From NCBI GenBank assembly GCA_038736825.1, contig JAVYME010000036.1:1-10942 (forward strand): a DNA stretch of 10,942 bases, written 5' to 3'. How positions within the stretch are numbered: position 1 is the stretch's first letter; each line of letters begins with the position of its first letter. Positions 580-10,041 of this stretch are shown piece after piece. Both the position numbers and the translations under genes were made by a program. Source of the DNA: Candidatus Iainarchaeum sp. (lineage in GTDB: Archaea > Iainarchaeota > Iainarchaeia > Iainarchaeales > DTGL01). The notes under the pieces are model-generated. The model was not told where the DNA came from, did not search any database, and saw only the letters and a program-made list of their open reading frames with translations.

Positions 580-2109
580 ATGAAATCCAAAAAAGCAATA
601 ATTGTTGGAGCGGGCCCAGGCGGTTTGGCTTGCGCAATGATTTTAGCCCACAGGGGTTTTTCAGTGACAGTTTACGAGAAAGAGGCAAGAGTGGGTGGAA
701 GGAATGCAGTGCTAAAAATTGGTCCTTACACTTTTGACACTGGCCCGACATTTTTAATGATGAAATTTATAATGGATGAAATGTTTGAAGAGGCTGGAAA
801 AGACTCTTCAAACTACCTCAAGGTGAAAGAGATAGAGCCATTGTATCACCTTGACTATGGAGACATGGAATTGTTTCCTTCAAAAGACATGGAAAAAAAC
901 ATTTTGGAGGCAAAAAAGTTTTTTCCTGGCAGTGAAAAAGGCGTTAAAGAATTCTATGAAAAGGAAAAAAAGCGCTATGAATTGTTGTTTCCATGCCTTC
1001 AAAAGGATTACTCGCATTTTTCTGCTTTTTTTTCAAAGCGCTTCATAAAGGCAATTCCAATTTTAGGCATAAACGAGTCCTTGTTTGATAATTTAAACCA
1101 TTATTTTAAGGATTTAAGGCAAAAAATGGCTTTTGCGTTTCAATCCAAATACCTTGGAATGTCGCCATGGGAGTGCCCTGCAGGTTTTACCATGATTCCT
1201 TACGTGGAAAGAAGATATGGCATATTCCATGTAATGGGCGGCTTGAACGCAATATCTGAGGCAATGGCGAGAGCAGCAAAAGAGGAGGGCGCAAAAATAA
1301 AACTGAAAACCCCAGTAAAGCAAATAATCTTTGAGGGAAGAAAAGCAGTCGGGGTTTTGCTTGAATCAGGCAAAAAGGATTTTGCAGACGAAATAATAAT
1401 AAACGCAGACTTTGGTTATGCTGCCACAAACCTTTTCCCGAAAGGGTTTTTGAAAAAATATTCTCCAGAAAAAATTGCAAAAAAGAAATACTCTTGCTCC
1501 ACTTTCATGATATACTTGGGAGTGGACAAAAAATATTCCTTGCCACACCACAACATTTACTTTTCAAAAGACTATGAAGGCAACGTGAAAGACATATTTG
1601 AAACAAAAAAACTCTCTGAAGAGCCGTCCTTTTACCTTCAAAACCCTTCAGCAATAGATGAATCGCTTGCACCAAAAAACCATTCTGCAATCTATGTGCT
1701 TGTTCCGGTTCCAAACAACACTTCCAAAATAAACTGGGAAAAAGAAAAGAAGGCTTTCAGGAACAAGGTACTAAATTTAGTGGCAAAAAGAACAAAAATA
1801 AAAGACATAGAAAAGCACATAAAGGCTGAACATATTATCACTCCACTTGACTGGGAGAAAAAATACAATGTTTATTATGGTGCCACATTCAATTTAGCCC
1901 ACAATCTTTCCCAAATGCTTTATTTCCGTCCAAGAAACAAGTTTGAGGAAGCTGAAAACTGTTGGCTTGTCGGAGGCGGCACTCATCCTGGAAGCGGTTT
2001 GCCGACAATATACGAGTCTGCAAGAATCACAGCAAACCTTTTATGCAAAAAGCATGGAATCAACTTCAAAGAACCTTCAAGCCTTTCAGAAAAAAGAACA
2101 GGCGGCTGA
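580..2109 (+). CDS. crtI: CrtI-family phytoene desaturase / carotenoid (FAD-dependent) oxidoreductase
   Basis: ATG 580 gives MKSKKAIIVGAGPGGLACAMILAHRGFSVTVYEKEARVGGRN (Rossmann GxGxxG at nt 604-624, followed by E-x5-GGR). It continues with GPYTFDTGPTFLMM and the C-terminal NCWLVGGGTHPGSGLPTIYESARITANLL. These are the three hallmark blocks of CrtI-type enzymes. The ORF-track TTG at 565 adds 5 residues before a canonical N-terminus, so ATG 580 is preferred. Stop is TGA 2107-2109. Subfamily (CrtI, CrtD or CrtN-like) cannot be decided by eye. Confidence 0.85.
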   Translation: MKSKKAIIVGAGPGGLACAMILAHRGFSVTVYEKEARVGGRNAVLKIGPYTFDTGPTFLMMKFIMDEMFEEAGKDSSNYLKVKEIEPLYHLDYGDMELFPSKDMEKNILEAKKFFPGSEKGVKEFYEKEKKRYELLFPCLQKDYSHFSAFFSKRFIKAIPILGINESLFDNLNHYFKDLRQKMAFAFQSKYLGMSPWECPAGFTMIPYVERRYGIFHVMGGLNAISEAMARAAKEEGAKIKLKTPVKQIIFEGRKAVGVLLESGKKDFADEIIINADFGYAATNLFPKGFLKKYSPEKIAKKKYSCSTFMIYLGVDKKYSLPHHNIYFSKDYEGNVKDIFETKKLSEEPSFYLQNPSAIDESLAPKNHSAIYVLVPVPNNTSKINWEKEKKAFRNKVLNLVAKRTKIKDIEKHIKAEHIITPLDWEKKYNVYYGATFNLAHNLSQMLYFRPRNKFEEAENCWLVGGGTHPGSGLPTIYESARITANLLCKKHGINFKEPSSLSEKRTGG

Positions 2110-2114
2110 ACTTT

Positions 2115-3025
2115 TTGCCAAAAAACACGGTTTTGCTCTTGCAATTAATTAAGCTTGGGCGCTTTCAATTTGTTTTTGGGGGCATCCTGTTATACCTCTT
2201 GGGTTGCCTTTTGGCATTGCCTGCAGGCTATGCTTTCAATCCCTTTTTATGGTTTTCTGGCTATCTAGTTTTGTTTCCAGCGCACCTTTCAGTTTCCTAC
2301 AGCAATGACTTTTTTGATTCAATTGGAGACAAGGCTGCCAAGCGAACCATTTTCTCGGGCGGAAGCGGTGTTCTCTTAGAACACCCTGAACTAAGAGAAA
2401 CAGCGAAAAGAATTGCTTTGGCATTAATAGCATTGTCTTTTCTTGCAGGAATTGCTTTCATTTTAGCATTTGATTTCAATCCATTTCTTTTGGTTTTTGT
2501 TTTAATTGGAAATTTTTGTGGCTGGTTTTATAGTGCCCCCCATTGCGCTTTTCTGAAAAAATTTATGGCAACACTGTTTTTGCCCTTACTGCTTGCGTTT
2601 TGCTTCCAAGCTTTGGCAATTTTATTGCTTCCGGTACAATCACGCCAGAAATGCTTGCATTTTCAATTCCACTGCTGTTTTATGGTTACGCTTTCACAAT
2701 TGCAGTTCAAATACCCGATATTATTGTGGACAGAAAAAACAATAAAAAAAATTTTGCACTGGTTTTAGGCGAACAAAAATCCTTTTTTGCAATTTTAGTT
2801 CTTTCAATTTCAGCCTCTCTTTCCTTTATTGCAATTCCCTTCCTTTTCAAAAACATCCCTGACTTCAATTTTTTCTTTTTATTTTCATGGATTCCGCTTG
2901 CAGTTTCTTCCTTCAATCTTTTGGCAAAAAACAAGGCCTCCCTTAAAACAATGGTTTTTGTTTCTTCAATAATGGCTTTTGCAGCAATTTGCAATGCATT
3001 CCTGTTCTGGAAATTTTTTTGGTAA
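2115..3025 (+). pseudogene. UbiA-family aromatic/isoprenoid prenyltransferase, interrupted by a 1-nt frameshift in a C6 run (true pseudogene, homopolymer assembly error, or recoding site)
   Basis: The N-terminal half is in the frame of ORF 1962-2768. It carries TM helices and the first Asp-rich motif NDFFDSIGD (nt 2304-2330). The C-terminal half is in the frame of ORF 2543-3025, with the second Asp-rich motif DIIVD (2717-2731) followed by RKNNKKNFALVLG. The two frames can only be joined at 2534-2542. Adding one C restores ...WFYSAPPLRFS..., the canonical UbiA-fold junction. The repaired length of about 300 aa is typical for the family. The start is uncertain: there is no in-frame ATG after the crtI stop, and TTG 2115 (5 nt after the stop) or TTG 2133/2139 are the candidates. 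Confidence 0.75.
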
Positions 3026-3057: not shown

Positions 3058-3915
3058 TTATTCTACAATAATCTCTAATTCAAAGGATTGCGCGCTTTTT
3101 GATGCAAAGCCCACGTCAACGTATTGACTGCCGAGTTCTTGCTTCCACTTTTCAGCATATTCAATTGGTGGATCCACAATAATAATTTTGACAGAAAAGT
3201 TCTTTTTTGGAGCATTCTTTTTTGCAAAAACCTCCACAAAAACAGCCCTAGCCCAAGCTTTATCGAATTTTGGAAAGCTTGGGCCTAACAAAAAAACAGG
3301 CTCGCTTATGTTCACTTCAAGGAATTGCTTTGCATTTTCATCAAGAAATTCTGGTTTCAACATCATTCCCTGAAATGATCTTACCCCATAACCTGAATGC
3401 AGAAAAAACACAGTCTTTTTTTTTCCTTCCTGTTGCACAAAAACAGTTTCTTTTATGGGAAAATAGCCATAGCCATAAGCAGCCCAATGCGTTGTAGACG
3501 GCTTTAACCAGTATTCAAGCCCGTTTTGCTTGAAAGAAGGATAGAATTCTGGTTGCAAATAATAATCTTTTGAAAAAAAATCATAATTCGTGTAAAGGTT
3601 TTTGTGCATTAATGAAACAATCCTGTTAAAATCAGGGGGTGGAACAGGCAATTCTTCAAATACTGCTAGCGGAATGCCGTAAGCCTTTCTTTCTTCCATA
3701 AGCCCTTCCGAATTTTGGCTGCTTTCTGGAATTATTGAAGAACTAAAACCAGGAAGCAGGTTGTTGTTGTCGCTTTCAATGCTGGTTTTTTTGAATGAAT
3801 TCAGGTTAAAAACAAAAAAGAAAACAGCCAAAACCGCAACAATAACAATTAAAATCCCAGCAATGGCTTTTTTTTCTGGCTTTTTCTTTTCCATAAAAGC
3901 AAATTTTCCAGCCAA
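3058..3915 (-). CDS. Hypothetical N-terminally membrane-anchored protein with an aromatic-rich extracytoplasmic domain; distal gene of the giant-protein operon
   Basis: TTG 3915 sits 4 nt downstream of GAGGTGA (3920-3926). An alternative ATG lies at 3894. The product has a basic N-terminus (KKKPEKK), one TM helix (AIAGILIVIVAVLAVFFFVF), and then about 235 aa rich in Tyr/Phe/Trp (HWAAYGYGYFP, FFLHSGYGVRSFQGM) with no motif I recognise. Stop is TAA 3058-3060. Confidence 0.75.
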   Translation of the reverse strand: MAGKFAFMEKKKPEKKAIAGILIVIVAVLAVFFFVFNLNSFKKTSIESDNNNLLPGFSSSIIPESSQNSEGLMEERKAYGIPLAVFEELPVPPPDFNRIVSLMHKNLYTNYDFFSKDYYLQPEFYPSFKQNGLEYWLKPSTTHWAAYGYGYFPIKETVFVQQEGKKKTVFFLHSGYGVRSFQGMMLKPEFLDENAKQFLEVNISEPVFLLGPSFPKFDKAWARAVFVEVFAKKNAPKKNFSVKIIIVDPPIEYAEKWKQELGSQYVDVGFASKSAQSFELEIIVE

Positions 3916-3919
3916 AAAA

Positions 3920-3926
3920 TCACCTC
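3920..3926 (-). promoter_or_regulatory. Shine-Dalgarno site GAGGTGA overlapping the stop codon of the giant gene
   Basis: The minus strand reads AGC-TGA-GGTGA-TTTT-TTG. The GA of the TGA stop (3925-3927) plus GGTGA form GAGGTGA, which is complementary to the 16S rRNA 3' end. It is followed by a 4-nt spacer and TTG 3915. This is a classic translational-coupling arrangement. Confidence 0.55.
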
Positions 3927-6900
3927 AGCTTGGACCACTAGTGCTTGTAACATTGCGATCTGTGCTTCCAACACTGGCTCCAATAAAATCTGCAAAAATA
4001 AAAATGTTCAAATCCTTTGAACCAGTGCTATAAACAGCAGTTCCAATGTTTTTTGGAGTAGCATCTATTTCAACACAGTCCACGTCAGTGTTTCCACTGC
4101 ACGAAGAAGCCCAGCCATTGTATGTTTTTGAAACCTTTAACTTGAGAGTGCTTGGAAGGGCTTCATTCAAGTGAAGCGAAAAATTAATATCGTTCCAGCC
4201 AGTGCTTTGATTGTCATAAACAAAAAAAGGAATGCTTGAAGTCTGGCCTTCTGGGTCCACTTTGGTTTGATCTGAAAGCCCTGACAAATCTGTTGGCTCA
4301 AAATAGCCTTTTTCGCAGGCACCACTGCCAGCACTAATTCTGCCTTTTCCTTCAGTGCAACCTGAAGAGGGCAGTGAAAGCGTGAAAGTATAATCCGCTG
4401 GCCCACTTATTGTTATATTTATGTCTGCATTGTTTGCACTAGAATAGTTCACGTCAGCACTCCAATTAGAATCAATTTTTGCTCTAATTGTATAAGTGCC
4501 AGCGGCAGTGCCAGTGACTTGGAAAACAAAATAGTTTGTGTCAGAAACATCGAGCAAATTGTCTCTCCTGAAATAAGTGCCATTTGAAACATAAAGCGGG
4601 CTTGAAGAAGAAGTGTTCATGTCAAACCATTGAGAGCAGCCATTTGAAGGATTAATGCAATACATTAGTACGACATTTGTGTCACCACAGGAATAGTTTT
4701 TGCAAGAGCCAAGCACGCTTACATCAAAAGCAGTGTTTATTGTTTTCTGTGAATTGTTTGCAGGCGAAACAATTCCAGTGTTCAAGTCACCTGCAAGCCT
4801 AATGCTTGCAGGAGCAATGAGGTTGCTGTCCCTTGTTGCTGCAGTATTCCCGTTATAGGAAAGTGTTCCCACAGCAGTGGTTGGGCTCACACCGTAAAAC
4901 GCGACCTCTGCGACTATTTTGTCTCCCCTGGTTAATGTAACAGCACTACCAGCAGCAGTCAAAAGCTTGTATGTGGGGCTTGTACCAATTTCAGTTGCCA
5001 AGGTAGTTGGAACCACAATATTCTGCTGCTTTGAGTCATTTGCATCCCAGACATAAATCGCATACCTTCCCTGCAAGTCGTCGTTAGTTGCACTTTCGTG
5101 AAGATAAGCAGTCATCCTCCAGTTCGCAGCGGAAATAGTCTGCGGCACAAGTGGAGGAGAAGTGAAAGAAGCTAGGCTGATGAAAACATTACTTCCACTA
5201 CTAAGTGATGGTGTTGAAATAGTAGTGGTCGAACTACCAGCTGTGTCAATCATTCCAAGGCCAGTCCAAGTGCTTCCGGCAAGAAAGCTGTCTCCAGAGG
5301 CAGAAGCATTAGGCATTGGCTCACTTGGAGCCCAATCAGCGGCTTGCCTAAAAAAGAAAATTGTTGTCGGGTTTGCGTCCACTGCAATCATCCAAGCCCT
5401 TGTTTCTGCAAAAAAGAAGTTTTTTCCATTTATCTCCAATGGCCCGATATTGTAAAGCCATGGCTTTTTGTCAGGAACTGAATAATAATAGTAAATTTCT
5501 GCAATTCCTTCTTCATTGAATTTAACATTTTTCCATTCAATTATTTTCTCGCTTTCGGTTTCAGAAACAGAAAAGCCTTCGCCTTCAATTTCGAATTCTT
5601 TTGGCACAAACTCTCTAATGTCAGCTGTTTTCTTTCCATCAAATGTTTTCACCTCTATTGCTACTTTGTTGGGTTGAACTGCTGGGTCGATTTTTGTGGC
5701 GGTTCGCCTTAAAACTTCAAAGGGAACAAATTTTTGGACTTCAAAGGTTGTCTTAATTTCAACATCAATATTGGGAGCAATGGCTTTCGCTAGCACTCCA
5801 TGGGTTCCCTCTTCAAAAACTTGCAGTTCGCCAACATAAATTCCACTTGAAGTTGTTTCCTTTATGGTGCCATTTATTGTGGAAATTGTTTGAGTTTGCC
5901 CGCTTGGAGTCAAAACTGCAAGGTTGACTTCTGCCCCCTGCACTCCATAGCTTTCCCTGTCGAGCACGACAACATGGAATTCAACTGTTTCACCCGGCTT
6001 ATATGTGCTTTTGACTGTATTTACTGCAATCAAGCCCCATTCAAAGGAATCCGATTGCTCTATAAACTCATTTCCGTCAAAAGCTTTAATTCTCAAAGTA
6101 TAAGTGCCAGCCTTAAAGCTTCGCAATACTGGCACGGTTATAAGGAAAACCCCTTCCTCTTTTCTTTTTATTTTTTCTGTGCTAATCGGTTTTTCTGTTC
6201 CATCCGGCATTACAAGAAATGCTTCTATTTCACTGTCAACTTTTTCGTTCAATTCGCTTGTTATTTGGAGTTCAAAGACAGGCATTTCGTTTGCCAAAAA
6301 TTTGGAGCGAGCTTTGGAGAGTGCAAAAAACTTTTTTCCAGATTTTTTTATTTTTAGCTCTGGCTCGTCCTTGTTAAAATCCTCTATATTGAAATCTGGT
6401 GGCAGTTCTGGCAAAACAATGCGCTTGGCAAAAGCAAAGGCTCTTGCACCGTTTTCCAAGGAAAGCAATGCAGTGGCGCCACTTATTTCAGAGGCTTTTT
6501 CAAAAAGCGAATTGCATTTTTTTCCAGCAAAATCCCAGTTATTGCATAAAAAAACAGTGTCAGCTTCACCAGGCACTGCGAACGAAATAAGCCCTTGTTC
6601 AAAAGAAAAACCGGGCTTTTCTGCCACAATGTTTTCAAAATAAAAGTTTTTGTCAGGACTGGGCACAGAATTTTCATCTATTTCTTCATCTATTTCAAAC
6701 AATGTTGTGTTTGAGTCAATTTTTGCTCCGTCAATTTCAATTTTTGAAAAAACAGAATCAAAAAAAGAAATTTTCAAGGCATAAGAGCCAAGCGCTATTT
6801 CAATCAATTCAGTGCCAGAGGCAACAGGGTTCTCGTTGGAATCATAAAATGTTGCTGCTGAAAAAAAATTGGATGGCTTTACAAAAACAGTTTTTTGCAT

Positions 6901-7503
6901 TGGTTCAATTGGCTTTGCAGTGCCAGGCGCCAAAGATGGAGTTGGGAAAGGGGTTTCCCCTGAATGGCTTGGGCTTATTGCTGGCGTTTCAAGGAGTGTA
7001 TCCTGTGCTTGAGTTGGAATTGCAGTCTGAATTGGGGTTTCCGGAAGAGTTGTGTCAGGCTGAAGAGGGCTTGCAGTTGGGATTTCCTCGGGCTTTTCTT
7101 CCAAGGGATTGATTATTTCTATATTGGCTTTCTTGGATTGGCAGTTTTCTTCGATGCAGGCAGTAATTGAAAAGGAATGCACTCCATTTTCAAATTGTAA
7201 AGAATTAAAATCTGATGAAAAATTGTTTTCAATTGAAAGACTGCCAAGCCTTTGCCCGTCCACTTCAAACCAAGCGCTTGTAATTTGTTCCCTTGGCTCT
7301 ATAACTGCAATAACTATTGCACTGCCTTTCACTTTTTGTGATTCCATTGGCGAAACTATTGAAACAAATAATGTTTCTTGTTGAGTTTTTGCGGTTTCTT
7401 TTAAGATTTCATCTTCTTGAAAGAACGCGGGGGAAAGAAAAAAAGTTGTTGGAATAATAAAAACCAAGCAAAGCCAGAAAAAAAAGCCACTTTCTTTCAG
7501 CAT
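3925..7503 (-). CDS. Giant (~1190 aa) secreted surface protein: mosaic of Ig-like/beta-sandwich domains with a Pro/Thr linker and a Cys- and N-glycosylation-sequon-rich C-terminal third; no C-terminal membrane anchor
   Basis: The ORF is uninterrupted from 3925 to 7515. ATG 7503 (MLKESGFFFWLCLVFIIPTTFFLSPAFF...) is preferred over the TTGs at 7515/7512. After the hydrophobic N-terminal signal comes an Ig-like domain (VSIVSP...GSAIVIAVIEP...AWFEVDGQRLG...NGVHSFSITA). A Pro/Thr/Glu linker with ETP repeats follows (nt ~6898-7107). Beta-sandwich modules follow, each with the pattern x-P-[DS]-G-x...G-x-Y (e.g. YKPGETVEFHVVVLD...VLTPSGQ...SGIYVGEL, nt ~5746-6033). The C-terminal ~290 aa (3928-4803) contain many Cys and, by my manual count, at least 12 N-x-S/T sequons in the last ~460 aa. 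The protein ends ...DRNVTSTSGPS with no TM segment. Stop is TGA 3925-3927. Confidence 0.85.
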   Translation of the reverse strand: MLKESGFFFWLCLVFIIPTTFFLSPAFFQEDEILKETAKTQQETLFVSIVSPMESQKVKGSAIVIAVIEPREQITSAWFEVDGQRLGSLSIENNFSSDFNSLQFENGVHSFSITACIEENCQSKKANIEIINPLEEKPEEIPTASPLQPDTTLPETPIQTAIPTQAQDTLLETPAISPSHSGETPFPTPSLAPGTAKPIEPMQKTVFVKPSNFFSAATFYDSNENPVASGTELIEIALGSYALKISFFDSVFSKIEIDGAKIDSNTTLFEIDEEIDENSVPSPDKNFYFENIVAEKPGFSFEQGLISFAVPGEADTVFLCNNWDFAGKKCNSLFEKASEISGATALLSLENGARAFAFAKRIVLPELPPDFNIEDFNKDEPELKIKKSGKKFFALSKARSKFLANEMPVFELQITSELNEKVDSEIEAFLVMPDGTEKPISTEKIKRKEEGVFLITVPVLRSFKAGTYTLRIKAFDGNEFIEQSDSFEWGLIAVNTVKSTYKPGETVEFHVVVLDRESYGVQGAEVNLAVLTPSGQTQTISTINGTIKETTSSGIYVGELQVFEEGTHGVLAKAIAPNIDVEIKTTFEVQKFVPFEVLRRTATKIDPAVQPNKVAIEVKTFDGKKTADIREFVPKEFEIEGEGFSVSETESEKIIEWKNVKFNEEGIAEIYYYYSVPDKKPWLYNIGPLEINGKNFFFAETRAWMIAVDANPTTIFFFRQAADWAPSEPMPNASASGDSFLAGSTWTGLGMIDTAGSSTTTISTPSLSSGSNVFISLASFTSPPLVPQTISAANWRMTAYLHESATNDDLQGRYAIYVWDANDSKQQNIVVPTTLATEIGTSPTYKLLTAAGSAVTLTRGDKIVAEVAFYGVSPTTAVGTLSYNGNTAATRDSNLIAPASIRLAGDLNTGIVSPANNSQKTINTAFDVSVLGSCKNYSCGDTNVVLMYCINPSNGCSQWFDMNTSSSSPLYVSNGTYFRRDNLLDVSDTNYFVFQVTGTAAGTYTIRAKIDSNWSADVNYSSANNADINITISGPADYTFTLSLPSSGCTEGKGRISAGSGACEKGYFEPTDLSGLSDQTKVDPEGQTSSIPFFVYDNQSTGWNDINFSLHLNEALPSTLKLKVSKTYNGWASSCSGNTDVDCVEIDATPKNIGTAVYSTGSKDLNIFIFADFIGASVGSTDRNVTSTSGPS

Positions 7504-7528
7504 AAGAACCAACAACCACTGGTTGAAA

Positions 7529-7593: not shown

Positions 7594-7902
7594 ATGGGAA
7601 AAAGGGTGATATACGTGAATTTTAAGTTTTGGGTAATAGTTTTAATTTTAATAAATTTTTGCATAGTGGTGTTTGCTGACACTCAAACCACCACTTTGAG
7701 TTGGGTTATTCCCGCAAACGTTGTGCACACTCTCTCTTATGGTGGCAATTGTTCAAATTCCGCAATGTATTTTATTGAAACAAATTCTCCAGAGGATCCA
7801 GACATTGACGGAAATGGCGCAAAAATAATTCCATATGATGCAGCAAGCAGTGGCATTTCAATAGACAGGCCACATTTTAGGCTAATCATAACAGTAAACT
7901 AA
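7594..7902 (+). CDS. Small secreted protein (95-102 aa precursor) with signal peptide; mature part resembles the start of the giant protein's C-terminal domain
   Basis: ATG 7594 gives MGKRVIYVNFKFWVIVLILINFCIVVFA/DTQ. The alternative GTG 7615 is preceded by GGGTGAT (7604-7610) plus a 4-nt spacer and gives MNFKFWVIVLILINFCIVVFA/DTQ, a textbook Sec signal. The mature ~73 aa are Thr/Ser/Asn/Asp-rich. Stop is TAA 7900-7902. There is no alternative long ORF here on either strand. Confidence 0.6.
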   Translation: MGKRVIYVNFKFWVIVLILINFCIVVFADTQTTTLSWVIPANVVHTLSYGGNCSNSAMYFIETNSPEDPDIDGNGAKIIPYDAASSGISIDRPHFRLIITVN

Positions 7903-7944: not shown

Positions 7945-7956
7945 CTTAAAAAGATT

Positions 7957-7964
7957 TTTAAATA
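7957..7964 (+). promoter_or_regulatory. TATA-like element TTTAAATA upstream of the 685-aa membrane protein gene
   Basis: Its centre is about 23-24 nt upstream of GTG 7984. Only a weak AGG lies between them. This is again leaderless-type geometry. Confidence 0.35.
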
Positions 7965-7983
7965 ATGGAAGCATAATAGGTTT

Positions 7984-10041
7984 GTGCTAGCAAAAAAACT
8001 GCCTTTGGTTTTGCTCTTTCTGTTGTTTTTCCATTTACTGGTTTTTGCGGATTTTAAGGGAACAGACTTAAAATGGCTTTCTGCAAGCGAAAACCTTTAT
8101 GAAATAAATATAACCGCAGATCATACGCCTGAATTGAACCAAGTTGTTGAAATAAAAGTGTCATTTTCAAAGCAAGGGGTTTTGCTTTCCGGCGACATAA
8201 ATGGCACAATCACGAAACCGGATGCTTCAACTGAGAGTTTCAATTTTGTACAAACTGGGGACGGCAATCACCAGTATAATTTTTTGTTTGAACAAAATGG
8301 GGCTTACACTCTTGACATAACCGCAGTTGATGAAAATGGCTTTCTTGCAAGGAAAAGAGATTATTTTTATGTTGGAGCATACAATATCAACAGGTCTATA
8401 ATAAGCCAGCAAGATTTTCTTCCAAACTCTATTGTCACCATTATGGTTTATGCAAGCGTTAATCCACCGCTGGTGCGTGCTAGGGGAACAATTTCAATAA
8501 ATTATCCCAATGGAAACGCTCTTGTGTCAAATGCAAATCTCACTGAATCTACAACGCCAGGATATTACTCTTACAGTTTCACAGCGCCAAACATTCTTGG
8601 AACATATACTTACAACATAACAATGGTTTCTGGAGCGAATAGTGTTTCAAAAACAGGCAGTATAAACATCAATGTGTTGGGAGCCATTTGCGGCAATGGT
8701 TTTTGTGAAACAAATGAAACCTGCACAAACTGTGAAAGCGATTGCGGTGCGTGTACAATGCCAACTCCAATACAACAACCTGGCGGGGGCAGTGGAGGCG
8801 GAACAGGCGGTGGAGGTAGTTTTGCAAAACCCACTCCAACGCCAGAAACCTTTGAAAAACCAAAGATTAGAGCAGAAGGCATTTCTGTAAAGCCATTTGA
8901 ACTTGGAAGCCCTGCAATAATTAGCGGCAAAATCATAAATTCTTCAGACAAAAAAGCCACAGTACTAGTTTCAGTCATAATTCAATACGAAAACACACTG
9001 GAATATGTGGATGAAAGGGTTTACCTTGACATATTGCCTTCTTCCTCTCAAGACTTTTCAATGCTTTTGCCTTGGACTCCAAAAATTGCTGGCTCGCATG
9101 TAATGACTTTAACATTGTATTCAATTGACAAAACCGTTAAATTTGACGAACAAGTAAAAGTTTTTGAATTGCCAGGCGAAATGCGTTACGATCTAGAAAT
9201 CAAGTGCATTACTCAAAACACGGCAGCAGGACTGCCAGCCTATTTTGAAATATTTGCCTACAATTTAGGACAATACTATTCCGACATAGGCCTTTACTGG
9301 TTTATAGAGGACAGTGAAGGAAAAGTCCAGTTTTCTTCTTCAACGCCGTTTGCACTCAAGCCTGACGAAAAGGCAACCAAAGCGTTTATTGCCACAATTC
9401 CGCAAAACGCAAAATCAGGAATTTACACTGCAAGGGCAAAACTTTTACACCTTGAAAACGGCAATCAACCGGAAAGAGAAGCGATTTGCACTTTTAATGT
9501 TTTAAGCCAGCCAAACTATTATGCTTTAGAGGTTTTTGACTTAAACAAAAGGCTTGAAGAAGCGCAAAGCGCGGTTGAAGAACTAAAATTAAAAGGAAAA
9601 AATGTTTTAAGCATTGAATTGAAAATCTCTCAAGCAAGGCTGGCTCTTTTTGAAATAGAAACATTGATTGGCAACCGCAATTTTGAAGGAATTGAACTCA
9701 AATTAATAGATTTGTTCAAAAAAATAAACGATATTGAAAAAGAAATAGAACAAATCAAAAAAGAACCAGTTTTTGATTTCACAATTGTTTTGTTTTTGAT
9801 TTATGGCTTGATACTTTTGCTTTTAGGGTTCTTTTTTTATAGGCATATGCGACTGGCTGCTGAAAGAGAGGAAAAGTTTTCAAAAATTTTGGAAGCAAAC
9901 ATTCGCTCTGCAAGAAAGGCAAAAAGCCTTATTCCAATCGGCAAATCCTTATGGCATGAACCACAACACAAGCGGTTAATGCGAAAAATTCACGAAACCA
10001 GTCATGCCCATAAGCACGCTTTAAGCCATCATAAAAGTTAA
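7984..10041 (+). CDS. Type-I membrane surface protein: signal peptide, Ig-like domains, Cys-rich module, Gly/Pro linker, two CARDB-like domains, coiled-coil stalk, C-terminal TM helix, His-rich cytoplasmic tail
   Basis: GTG 7984 gives MLAKKLPLVLLFLLFFHLLVFA/DFKG, a signal peptide. Two beta-sandwich modules follow, with the P-[DN]-G...G-x-Y pattern (TKPDAST...NGAYTLDITAVD; NYPNGNA...PGYYSYSFTAPNILGTYTYNITM). Next come CGNGFCETNETCTNCESDCGAC (8689-8754), the linker PTPIQQPGGGSGGGTGGGGSFAKPTPTPE (8755-8865), and two CARDB-like repeats (~8872-9168 and ~9181-9504). A heptad-rich segment, LNKRLEEAQSAVEELKLKGK...KKINDIEKEIEQIKKE, spans ~9520-9765. The TM helix FDFTIVLFLIYGLILLLLGFFFY spans 9772-9840, followed by a basic tail ending HETSHAHKHALSHHKS. 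Stop is TAA 10039-10041. Confidence 0.85.
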   Translation: MLAKKLPLVLLFLLFFHLLVFADFKGTDLKWLSASENLYEINITADHTPELNQVVEIKVSFSKQGVLLSGDINGTITKPDASTESFNFVQTGDGNHQYNFLFEQNGAYTLDITAVDENGFLARKRDYFYVGAYNINRSIISQQDFLPNSIVTIMVYASVNPPLVRARGTISINYPNGNALVSNANLTESTTPGYYSYSFTAPNILGTYTYNITMVSGANSVSKTGSININVLGAICGNGFCETNETCTNCESDCGACTMPTPIQQPGGGSGGGTGGGGSFAKPTPTPETFEKPKIRAEGISVKPFELGSPAIISGKIINSSDKKATVLVSVIIQYENTLEYVDERVYLDILPSSSQDFSMLLPWTPKIAGSHVMTLTLYSIDKTVKFDEQVKVFELPGEMRYDLEIKCITQNTAAGLPAYFEIFAYNLGQYYSDIGLYWFIEDSEGKVQFSSSTPFALKPDEKATKAFIATIPQNAKSGIYTARAKLLHLENGNQPEREAICTFNVLSQPNYYALEVFDLNKRLEEAQSAVEELKLKGKNVLSIELKISQARLALFEIETLIGNRNFEGIELKLIDLFKKINDIEKEIEQIKKEPVFDFTIVLFLIYGLILLLLGFFFYRHMRLAAEREEKFSKILEANIRSARKAKSLIPIGKSLWHEPQHKRLMRKIHETSHAHKHALSHHKS

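Follow-up and report, generated by a model that had tools for sequence, protein, structure and literature searches.

A membrane-anchored surface protein of Candidatus Iainarchaeum, its uncharacterised family and a conserved five-gene neighbourhood

The tetrabrachion of hyperthermophilic archaea is a surface protein whose coiled coil is parallel, four-stranded and very long, extending over tens of nanometres. Donor-strand exchange fibres, which include the bacterial chaperone-usher pili and the 'threads' of Sulfolobus, are built from a tip adhesin and a major subunit. In the case of the Sulfolobales, SlaB has a signal peptide, two or three beta-sandwiches, a coiled coil and a C-terminal transmembrane (TM) helix; the coiled coil is trimeric and is formed by one continuous C-terminal helix of ~100-132 amino acids (aa), and the TM helix occupies residues 448-470 of 475, leaving a tail of ~5 aa (PMC6911244, PMC10903991). 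We discuss here a 685-aa protein encoded at 7984..10041 on the forward strand of a 10,942-bp contig from a metagenome-assembled genome (MAG) of Candidatus Diapherotrites (Iainarchaeota), the entire contig being the stretch of DNA that was analysed and that we refer to as the window. An earlier note on this DNA held that no named family combines the parts found in this protein. That was too strong, as SlaB has the same general layout, but the 685-aa protein fails the tests for membership of the SlaB family and has its own core, its own cytoplasmic tail motif and its own gene neighbourhood.

The open reading frame (ORF) has a GTG start, and the coordinates in the ORF listing include the stop codon. 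Its product is identical to QXK06_05360, an NCBI hypothetical protein that comes from a MAG of a Candidatus Diapherotrites archaeon, and the gene is real and lies where the earlier note put it. The domain order proposed there was also correct, as judged from hydrophobicity, cysteine positions and an AlphaFold2 (AF2) model. This uncharacterised cell-surface protein of a very small DPANN archaeon is real and conserved, and in general terms it is a familiar immunoglobulin (Ig)-domain surface protein with a C-terminal TM anchor, from an unstudied phylum; the surprises are the cytoplasmic motif and the five-gene context, both of them conserved. The full 685-aa sequence gave no match above threshold in Pfam, NCBIfam or the PDB, so that, as the earlier note had expected, no characterised adhesin or protease family was matched, and profiles of the core and helical region gave only compositional coiled-coil matches in the PDB.

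The reading that we favour, and which we hold to be about an even call, is that the 685-aa protein anchors or tethers to the membrane an envelope assembly that has yet to be described. The protein would be Sec-exported and anchored in the type-I orientation, with two variable Ig-like (YtkA/MG2/filamin-type) domains displayed outside on a flexible Gly-rich tether and with a conserved core and a three-helix pedestal sitting at the membrane. It would tether an extracellular assembly of the co-encoded secreted proteins, the contacts being made by the membrane-proximal core and possibly by an N-terminal peptide, and in the family the tail would dock an intracellular partner by means of a (L/I)LG(L/F)(E/D)(E/D) motif. 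It is the anchor role, the association with the products of neighbouring genes and the cytoplasmic docking that we infer, and the data that bear on each are given below.

An exhaustive profile-free search that covered 1.84 billion representative proteins gave 286 proteins with E<=1e-3, 26 of them reaching E<=1e-30. A word-indexed homologue search is nearly blind to the family, and gave 2 matches with the protein and 2 with a profile of the core. The closest full-length homologue is P0002, with 41% identity. About a dozen relatives, of 600-690 aa, can be aligned colinearly from end to end, and many more share only residues ~260-620, so we take the core of the family to be the two membrane-proximal sandwiches, the helices that follow them and the TM helix. 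The named sources are Diapherotrites/Candidatus Iainarchaeum MAGs or unclassified archaea, and the 9 loci found in GTDB genomes are mostly from Candidatus Iainarchaeum MAGs. This is an unnamed family that is essentially restricted to Iainarchaeota (Diapherotrites, DPANN), and no paper was found on the family, its tail motif or its gene cluster. Two members, P0017 (2362 aa) and P0018 (861 aa), have two complete cores with their helical bundles and a pair of TM helices between them, so the core module has been duplicated in tandem within one polypeptide.

The core motifs are invariant or near-invariant in the family alignments and all are present in the 685-aa protein: WTPxxAG, G398, RYD, C408/C502, NLGDYYxDV, G479xY481, CSFxV and YY at 512-513. 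The full-length AF2 model was built on 23 relatives, and in it the four sandwich domains have a predicted local distance difference test score (pLDDT) of ~90, with low confidence for a six-Cys module, a linker and the distal part of the tail. Beta-sandwich 3 (8866..9171, + strand; residues 295-396) carries the WTPxxAG motif, P366 and G370; it is part of the family-defining core and the best-conserved stretch in relatives that share only the C-terminal part. Beta-sandwich 4 (9187..9504, + strand; residues 402-507) carries RYD, NLGxYY and the Cys pair C408/C502, which presumably forms a disulfide, and has invariant or near-invariant columns at D403, C408, N427, G429, Y431, D434, G479, Y481 and C502.

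The earlier note described these two membrane-proximal modules as CARDB-like. That they are beta-sandwiches is borne out by the model, which places them at 295-396 and 402-507 with pLDDT ~90, but the CARDB label is not, as CARDB (PF07705) was matched neither in the 685-aa protein (E<=0.1) nor in the 23 relatives (E<=0.05). A distant relative, P0151, has a weak CARDB match (E 0.008) that is below the cut-off, and NPCBM_assoc/NEW3 (PF10633) matches P0151 and two of the 23. The likeness to CARDB and NEW3 is that the two modules are beta-sandwiches of similar size, with an Ig-like/E-set fold of ~100 residues. However the motifs that define the family, WTPxxAG, RYD, NLGDYYxDV and the conserved Cys pair, are not CARDB signatures, and going by the model the modules are ordinary Ig/macroglobulin (MG)-like sandwiches.

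Between the core sandwiches and the TM helix is the region that the earlier note read as a coiled coil, and which is predicted to be an antiparallel three-helix bundle (9508..9762, + strand) with helices at 509-536, 542-563 and 570-593. The full-length AF2 model has these three helices and then a fourth that begins at 599 with the TM segment. When the helical region was modelled alone with its own alignment the pLDDT was 95.3 and the predicted template modelling score (pTM) 0.84, and the closest PDB structure to that model found by Foldseek is 9rgz_B, a designed single-chain antiparallel three-helix bundle (template modelling score 0.81/0.77, root mean square deviation 1.7 A, 93 columns). Both loops are conserved: in loop 1, 16 of 23 sequences have Gly at the position of G538, followed by an aromatic or hydrophobic residue, Asp and Val, and in loop 2, 19 of 23 have Phe or Tyr at position 567. 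Across the 23 sequences, at 15-34% identity, the alignment of the 85-residue region has one insertion column, as would be expected of a folded domain of fixed geometry and not of a stalk of variable length. It is an optional module, since in five relatives (P0021, P0024, P0026, P0027 and P0029) the last beta-strand runs directly into the TM helix with no helical region.

The heptad character that had been noted for ~80 residues before the TM helix is real. The periodicity peaks at 514-597 and is confined to that segment of ~85 helical residues, and it exceeds that of shuffled sequences (P ~0.004 for the helical region and P ~0.02-0.03 for the whole ectodomain). It is explained by an intramolecular bundle, and the heptad register of helix 3 is one residue off that of helix 1. 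We conclude from the modelling that the region is predicted to be an up-down-up bundle with helices of 22-28 residues, forming a pedestal of ~4 nm. The uninterrupted helix of ~80 residues that was proposed to hold the beta-domains as a pillar ~10 nm above the membrane has to be given up in view of the three helices in the model, the conserved loops, the near gap-free alignment and the relatives that have no bundle.

The TM helix (9775..9843, + strand; residues 598-620) is the only hydrophobic segment other than the N-terminal signal, with a hydrophobicity maximum of 2.77 over 599-618, and lies within an AF2 helix of 599-644. Net charge is +9 for the tail and -2 for the 15 residues that precede the TM helix, a bias that agrees with the positive-inside rule and supports a predicted type-I topology with the beta-domains outside and the basic tail inside, as the earlier note had it. 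We also considered whether the protein could be an archaeosortase substrate of the PGF-CTERM/PEF-CTERM kind and rejected this: the sequence before the TM helix is KEPVFDFT with no PGF or PEF, a 65-aa tail takes the place of the short basic cluster in which such substrates end, and there was no NCBIfam match at E<=1.

The cytoplasmic tail (9844..10038, + strand; residues 621-685) is basic and His-rich, as had been described, and is disordered in the AF2 model past ~645. It has 9 His in 65 residues compared with 5 in the other 620 (binomial P ~3e-9), and 8 of these are in the last 28 residues. His-rich C-termini are also found in its closest relatives, P0002 and the protein of locus L005. Across the family the tails have 12-102 residues and are rich in Lys and Arg, and about 28 of about 40 relatives have at least one copy of the motif (L/I)LG(L/F)(E/D)(E/D), the fuller consensus being phi-x-(E/D)-(K/R)-(L/I)-L-G-(L/F)-(E/D)-(E/D) in one or two copies. 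A typical tail has one copy just past the TM helix and one at the extreme C-terminus, with a poly-Lys linker between them; examples of the latter, with the protein ending directly after the motif, are MLEKLLGLEE, IERLLGLEEE and FDKILGLEE. The motif was seen in relatives P0003-P0048 and in the genes at L007 7104-9038 and L012 11068-13026, and it is also kept in relatives without the helical bundle.

In the 685-aa protein, P0002 and the L005 protein the C-terminal copy has been lost and there is a His-rich end instead, and the pattern [LIFMV][LIFMV]G[LIFV] has no match in the tail of the 685-aa protein. There is what may be a degenerate juxtamembrane copy, KFSKILEAN (9874..9900, + strand; residues 631-639), which on comparison by eye with motifs of the DKILGLEE type fits in both position and sequence the juxtamembrane copies of P0004, P0005, P0025 and P0031, with the Gly lost. 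The earlier note had argued from the length of the tail for a cytoplasmic interaction or signalling role. For interaction this gains support at the level of the family from the motif in about 28 of about 40 relatives, but it is weakened for the 685-aa member by the loss of the motif. A literature search on the tail-motif strings gave nothing relevant, and a resemblance to the ESCRT MIM1 motif (LxxRLxxL) was dropped because just a few members fit.

At the other end, the signal peptide (7984..8049, + strand; residues 1-22, MLAKKLPLVLLFLLFFHLLVFA) lies in a Kyte-Doolittle hydrophobic window of residues 1-27, with an AF2 helix at 6-20, and the N-termini of the relatives are equivalent; the cleavage site was placed by eye. 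Near the start of the mature protein there is a Trp peptide, TDLKWLS (8062..8082, + strand; residues 27-33), for which the family consensus is T-x-T-W-V/I-x-P. All 23 of the close family members with a signal peptide have the Trp at 29-36 (W22 in one). The peptide sits 6-12 residues past the signal peptide, often with an N-x-T sequon just upstream, and is disordered in the AF2 monomer (pLDDT <50 over 21-37). In P0031 it is followed directly by a poly-Gly linker, the Ig modules being absent.

With regard to gene neighbourhood, comparison of 12 related loci gave a conserved cluster of five genes. The first encodes a large secreted protein of 900-1900 aa with a variable N-terminal part and a conserved C-terminal domain of ~155 aa, the second a type-II membrane protein of ~260 aa, the third a small secreted protein of ~210 aa, the fourth a paralogue of the type-II membrane protein of ~320-340 aa, and the fifth and last is the gene of the 685-aa family. 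This order is kept in L002, L004, L005, L007, L008, L009, L010 and L012. The cluster is colinear in L007, L008, L010 and L002, the last with PMT and GT2 glycosyltransferase genes inserted within it, and inversion of the first two genes gives L005 and L012 the same divergent layout as the window. In several loci the fourth gene abuts or overlaps the gene of the 685-aa family by 0-12 nucleotides (nt), which suggests co-translation.

The large protein in the window has 1196 aa (3925..7515, - strand), a Pfam MG2 match (E 9e-10) and the conserved C-terminal domain of ~155 aa, and has syntenic homologues in L002, L005, L007, L008, L010 and L012. It was also considered as a canonical archaeal S-layer (surface layer) protein, which was rejected as it has no S-layer family match, whereas the Micrarchaeota S-layer protein has one. 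The type-II protein in the window, with an N-terminal TM segment, has 285 aa (3058..3915, - strand); it has syntenic homologues in every locus, usually with two paralogues per cluster. A search with the type-II family gave 45 proteins, all hypothetical, with no Pfam match and no PDB relative. The one weak Pfam match among the other cluster proteins, to an archaeal pilin N-terminal model (E 0.038), spans the TM helix only.

Homology is probable between the small secreted protein and the conserved domain at the C-terminal end of the large one, which would be the kind of relationship found between a subunit and a tip protein. Comparison of the large protein domain (window 3925-4400) with the small proteins (L007 5410-6042, L005 5253-5960, L014 9437-9982) by hhalign gave a probability of 87% and E 3.8e-6 over 101 columns, and the domain has a BLASTP match at E 3e-9 to a Micrarchaeota intermediate, L014_181. 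By pairwise BLASTP the small secreted protein is unlike both the C-terminus of the large protein and the 685-aa protein. Its conserved N-terminal extension is TTMTWVVPS, a version of the T-x-T-W-(V/I)-x-P peptide with which the mature proteins of the 685-aa family also start; the shared peptide was seen in P0003-P0031 of that family and in the small secreted proteins of L002-L012.

A cluster of the same layout is present outside Iainarchaeota, in Candidatus Gugararchaeum of the Micrarchaeota (L014 3568-13543). It has genes for a large protein, a small protein homologous to the large C-terminus, a type-II protein and a protein with a signal peptide, beta-domains, a TM helix and a basic tail. 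In the case of this last protein (597 aa) homology to the 685-aa family was not detectable. The gene after it encodes a ParA/MinD-like ATPase.

In the window the 685-aa gene has the last-gene position in the layout of L005 and L012, with the two genes immediately upstream of it reduced to an ORF of 102 aa (7594..7902, + strand). In this ORF the start of the small secreted-protein gene is joined in frame to the 3' part of the gene for the type-II paralogue, the first ~76 residues being the start of the former and the last 26 the end of the latter (77% identical to L005), and BLASTP matches both L005 genes (cf. L005 5253-7009). The join is at a shared DAAS(S/G)G microhomology. At the DNA level 7667-7784 of the window matches L005 5395-5512 with 70% identity and 7836-7901 matches L005 6946-7011 with 91% identity, and as the two matches lie apart in L005 there is ~1.4 kb missing in the window that exists in L005, L007, L010 and L012. 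The gap may have arisen by true deletion or through misassembly. The locus of P0002 is also rearranged, with the genes for the large protein, the small protein and the paralogue absent. With the two upstream genes largely deleted and the tail motif copy lost, the system in this genome may be remodelled or decaying.

Several points weigh against the anchor reading. Synteny is the sole link among the cluster proteins, which have no relatives in Pfam, NCBIfam or the PDB from which a function could be assigned. The usual partner genes immediately upstream are deleted in the window and the large protein is absent at the P0002 locus, and the 685-aa protein can therefore persist without them. It is itself a member without the canonical C-terminal tail motif. 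N-glycosylation sequons are not enriched in it (7 observed, 5.8 expected). Finally, AF2 run on a monomer could wrongly fold an extended oligomeric coiled coil into a bundle, which bears on the predicted pedestal.

The alternative that survives best, although we still think it unlikely, is that the 685-aa protein is a stand-alone adhesin or host-attachment receptor in which the distal Ig domains bind a surface or host ligand independently of the neighbours. These domains were correctly recognised in the earlier note, which had a Sec signal followed by two Ig-like modules. Beta-sandwich 1 (8098..8373, + strand; residues 39-130) has AF2 strands with pLDDT ~90-95 and sub-threshold Pfam matches to Filamin and Ig-like_KY, and beta-sandwich 2 (8389..8670, + strand; residues 136-229 in the AF2 model) a sub-threshold match to MG2 over residues 162-214. 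The scores in the 685-aa protein are 18.4 bits for Filamin against a cut-off of 26.9 and 14.8 for MG2 against 32.8. Among the relatives the N-terminal modules match YtkA in 10 of 23, MG2 in 12 of 23 and Filamin in 6 of 23, with best E values of 5e-15, 7e-10 and 3e-11 respectively. Foldseek with the full model gave generic tandem MG/Ig arrays (complement C3/C5, alpha-2-macroglobulin, an adhesin repeat).

The matches to adhesin repeats and MG arrays are what would be expected of an adhesin, as is the variability of the distal Ig modules, which are the most variable part of the protein and are swapped or duplicated among relatives (duplicated in P0003, absent in P0031) while the proximal core is conserved. 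The 685-aa gene is also intact in the window and at the P0002 locus despite the lost cluster neighbours, and many DPANN archaea are ectosymbionts (PMC11329633). An adhesin acting independently of its neighbours is however difficult to reconcile with the tight synteny found at no fewer than 8 loci, where the upstream genes nearly overlap, with the N-terminal peptide common to the co-encoded small protein, or with P0031, which has no Ig modules and yet keeps the core, the tail and the cluster.

The distal domains are joined to the core by a six-Cys module and then a Gly/Pro linker, as had been seen in the sequence. The module (CGNGFCETNETCTNCESDCGAC, 8689..8754, + strand; residues 236-257) has Cys at 236, 241, 247, 250, 254 and 257, is of low AF2 confidence and matches no Pfam model. 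It is an optional insert that only some relatives carry. The unit of 22-25 aa (CGNGxCExGExCxxCxxDCGxC) is a mobile extracellular repeat, seen in P0063, P0070 and P0077, and unrelated secreted proteins can have as many as 11-12 copies of it in tandem, for instance P0063, a trypsin-like protease with a C-terminal TM segment. The Gly/Pro-rich flexible linker (8755..8865, + strand; residues 258-294) has pLDDT <50 over 256-289, and nearly all relatives have a Gly-rich linker at the equivalent place.

A more specific proposal, which must be regarded as rather improbable, is that the cluster encodes a new kind of DPANN surface fibre or envelope complex that is not of type IV, in which the small protein would be the repeating subunit, the large protein the tip or adhesin and the 685-aa family the base. 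The base would capture the assembly by the shared TxTW(V/I)xP strand in a donor-strand-like manner, and the LLGLEE-type tail motif would link that assembly with a partner in the cytoplasm. The likeness to the donor-strand exchange fibres is that the C-terminal domain of the large protein appears related to the small secreted subunit, and that there is a short N-terminal extension before the subunit domain which is common to the membrane-anchored 685-aa family. The difference is that those systems are not known to have a base subunit that is anchored by a TM helix and has a tail in the cytoplasm. No homology to pilin, usher or chaperone families was detected for the cluster proteins, and the likeness is a lead and not a result.

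The proposal of a SlaB-type S-layer stalk, in which a long and probably trimeric parallel coiled coil of ~10 nm would anchor a lattice of the 1196-aa protein, is in our judgement quite an unlikely one. It has the attraction that the domain order mirrors that of SlaB (PMC6911244, PMC10903991): both have a Sec signal, at least two N-terminal beta-sandwich domains, heptad helices and one C-terminal TM helix. Both genes adjoin a gene for a large secreted beta-rich protein, which in the window is the anchor-less product encoded next door. The heptad signal is significant, and oligomeric coiled coils can be folded back by AF2 run on a monomer. Against this, SlaB has one trimerising helix of up to 132 aa, and the 685-aa protein has three (28, 22 and 24 residues) in a predicted antiparallel bundle, with conserved Gly/aromatic loops, a length fixed over 23 sequences, a pTM of 0.84 and a match at 0.81 to an antiparallel three-helix bundle. 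The shift in heptad register between helix 1 and helix 3 and the absence of the helical region in some relatives also argue against a continuous stalk.

There are further differences from SlaB. Its TM helix is near the C-terminus and is followed by only ~5 aa, in contrast to the TM helix at 598-620 and 65-aa tail of the 685-aa protein, which also has a long Gly-rich tether and comes from another phylum. As for homology, the full protein gave no match to SlaB, the profile comparison with 8qox_B gave no significant similarity (E 0.012-0.13, in the helical region only and compositional), and SlaB was not among the top 50 Foldseek matches of the full model. The 1196-aa secreted protein, a conserved neighbour, would be the candidate for a SlaA-like lattice partner; it has no S-layer family signature. 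Membership of the SlaB family was thus rejected on the grounds that there is no long trimeric helix, the TM helix is not at the extreme C-terminus and there is no sequence homology. Tetrabrachion resembles the 685-aa protein in having a helical heptad region beside a C-terminal membrane anchor, but the helices of the 685-aa protein amount to ~85 residues, are interrupted by conserved loops and are dispensable in some relatives.

We think it very unlikely that the gene is a decaying relic that is non-functional despite its intact frame. It is true that ~1.4 kb has been deleted with fusion of the two upstream cluster genes and that the canonical tail motif is absent, and the P0002 locus is rearranged too, with a product that as annotated has no signal peptide. 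However the deletion could be an assembly artefact, the frame of 685 codons is intact, all of the near-invariant core residues are present, and L005 has a His-type tail and yet a complete cluster. There is also an A/T-rich TATA-like element read from the sequence at 7955-7983, TTTTTAAATAAT, ~15-30 nt upstream of the GTG start, because of which the 685-aa gene may have its own promoter, with a short leader or none; a bacterial promoter and terminator scan is uninformative here as the host is an archaeon. As to P0002, its annotated N-terminus (L001 3799-3900, MDKTPAEGNIFLKRSHSLCKHC...) differs from that of the L005 protein in having no signal peptide, and cluster genes are absent from its locus, which points to a rearranged locus or a wrong start.

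Least probable of all, and given very little credence by us, is a role as TM sensor or in metal handling, with the His-rich end binding Ni, Zn or Cu or relaying a signal, perhaps by way of YtkA/FixH-like outer domains, since in spite of the His enrichment (also in the closest relatives), the YtkA-like matches in 10 of 23 relatives and the naming of P0003 as a FixH family protein, neither an enzymatic nor a signalling domain is present in the tail, the His-richness is limited to a small subclade with most relatives being Lys-rich with the LLGLEE-type motif, the YtkA matches are fold-level and sub-threshold in the 685-aa protein, and a metal-ligand motif was not identified in the ectodomain.

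Elsewhere in the window, at 1962-3025, a UbiA prenyltransferase is split in two overlapping ORFs in different frames, of which 1962-2768 covers positions 6-134 of the Pfam UbiA model and 2543-3025 covers 114-249. This indicates a frameshift, by which the gene would be a pseudogene or the sequencing would be in error.

Iainarchaeota (Diapherotrites) are uncultivated, and to our knowledge nothing is known about their envelope. The analysis turns one 'hypothetical protein' into a defined family with a core, a modelled pedestal, a cytoplasmic linear motif and a five-gene neighbourhood, and corrects the geometry from a stalk of ~10 nm to a pedestal predicted to be ~4 nm. A Micrarchaeota genome has a cluster of similar architecture. 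These genes are candidates for the means by which such very small archaea make or anchor a structure on their surface, and for its possible connection to the cytoplasm, and if the proposal of a fibre with the 685-aa family as its base were true, it would be an archaeal surface structure with a direct line across the membrane.

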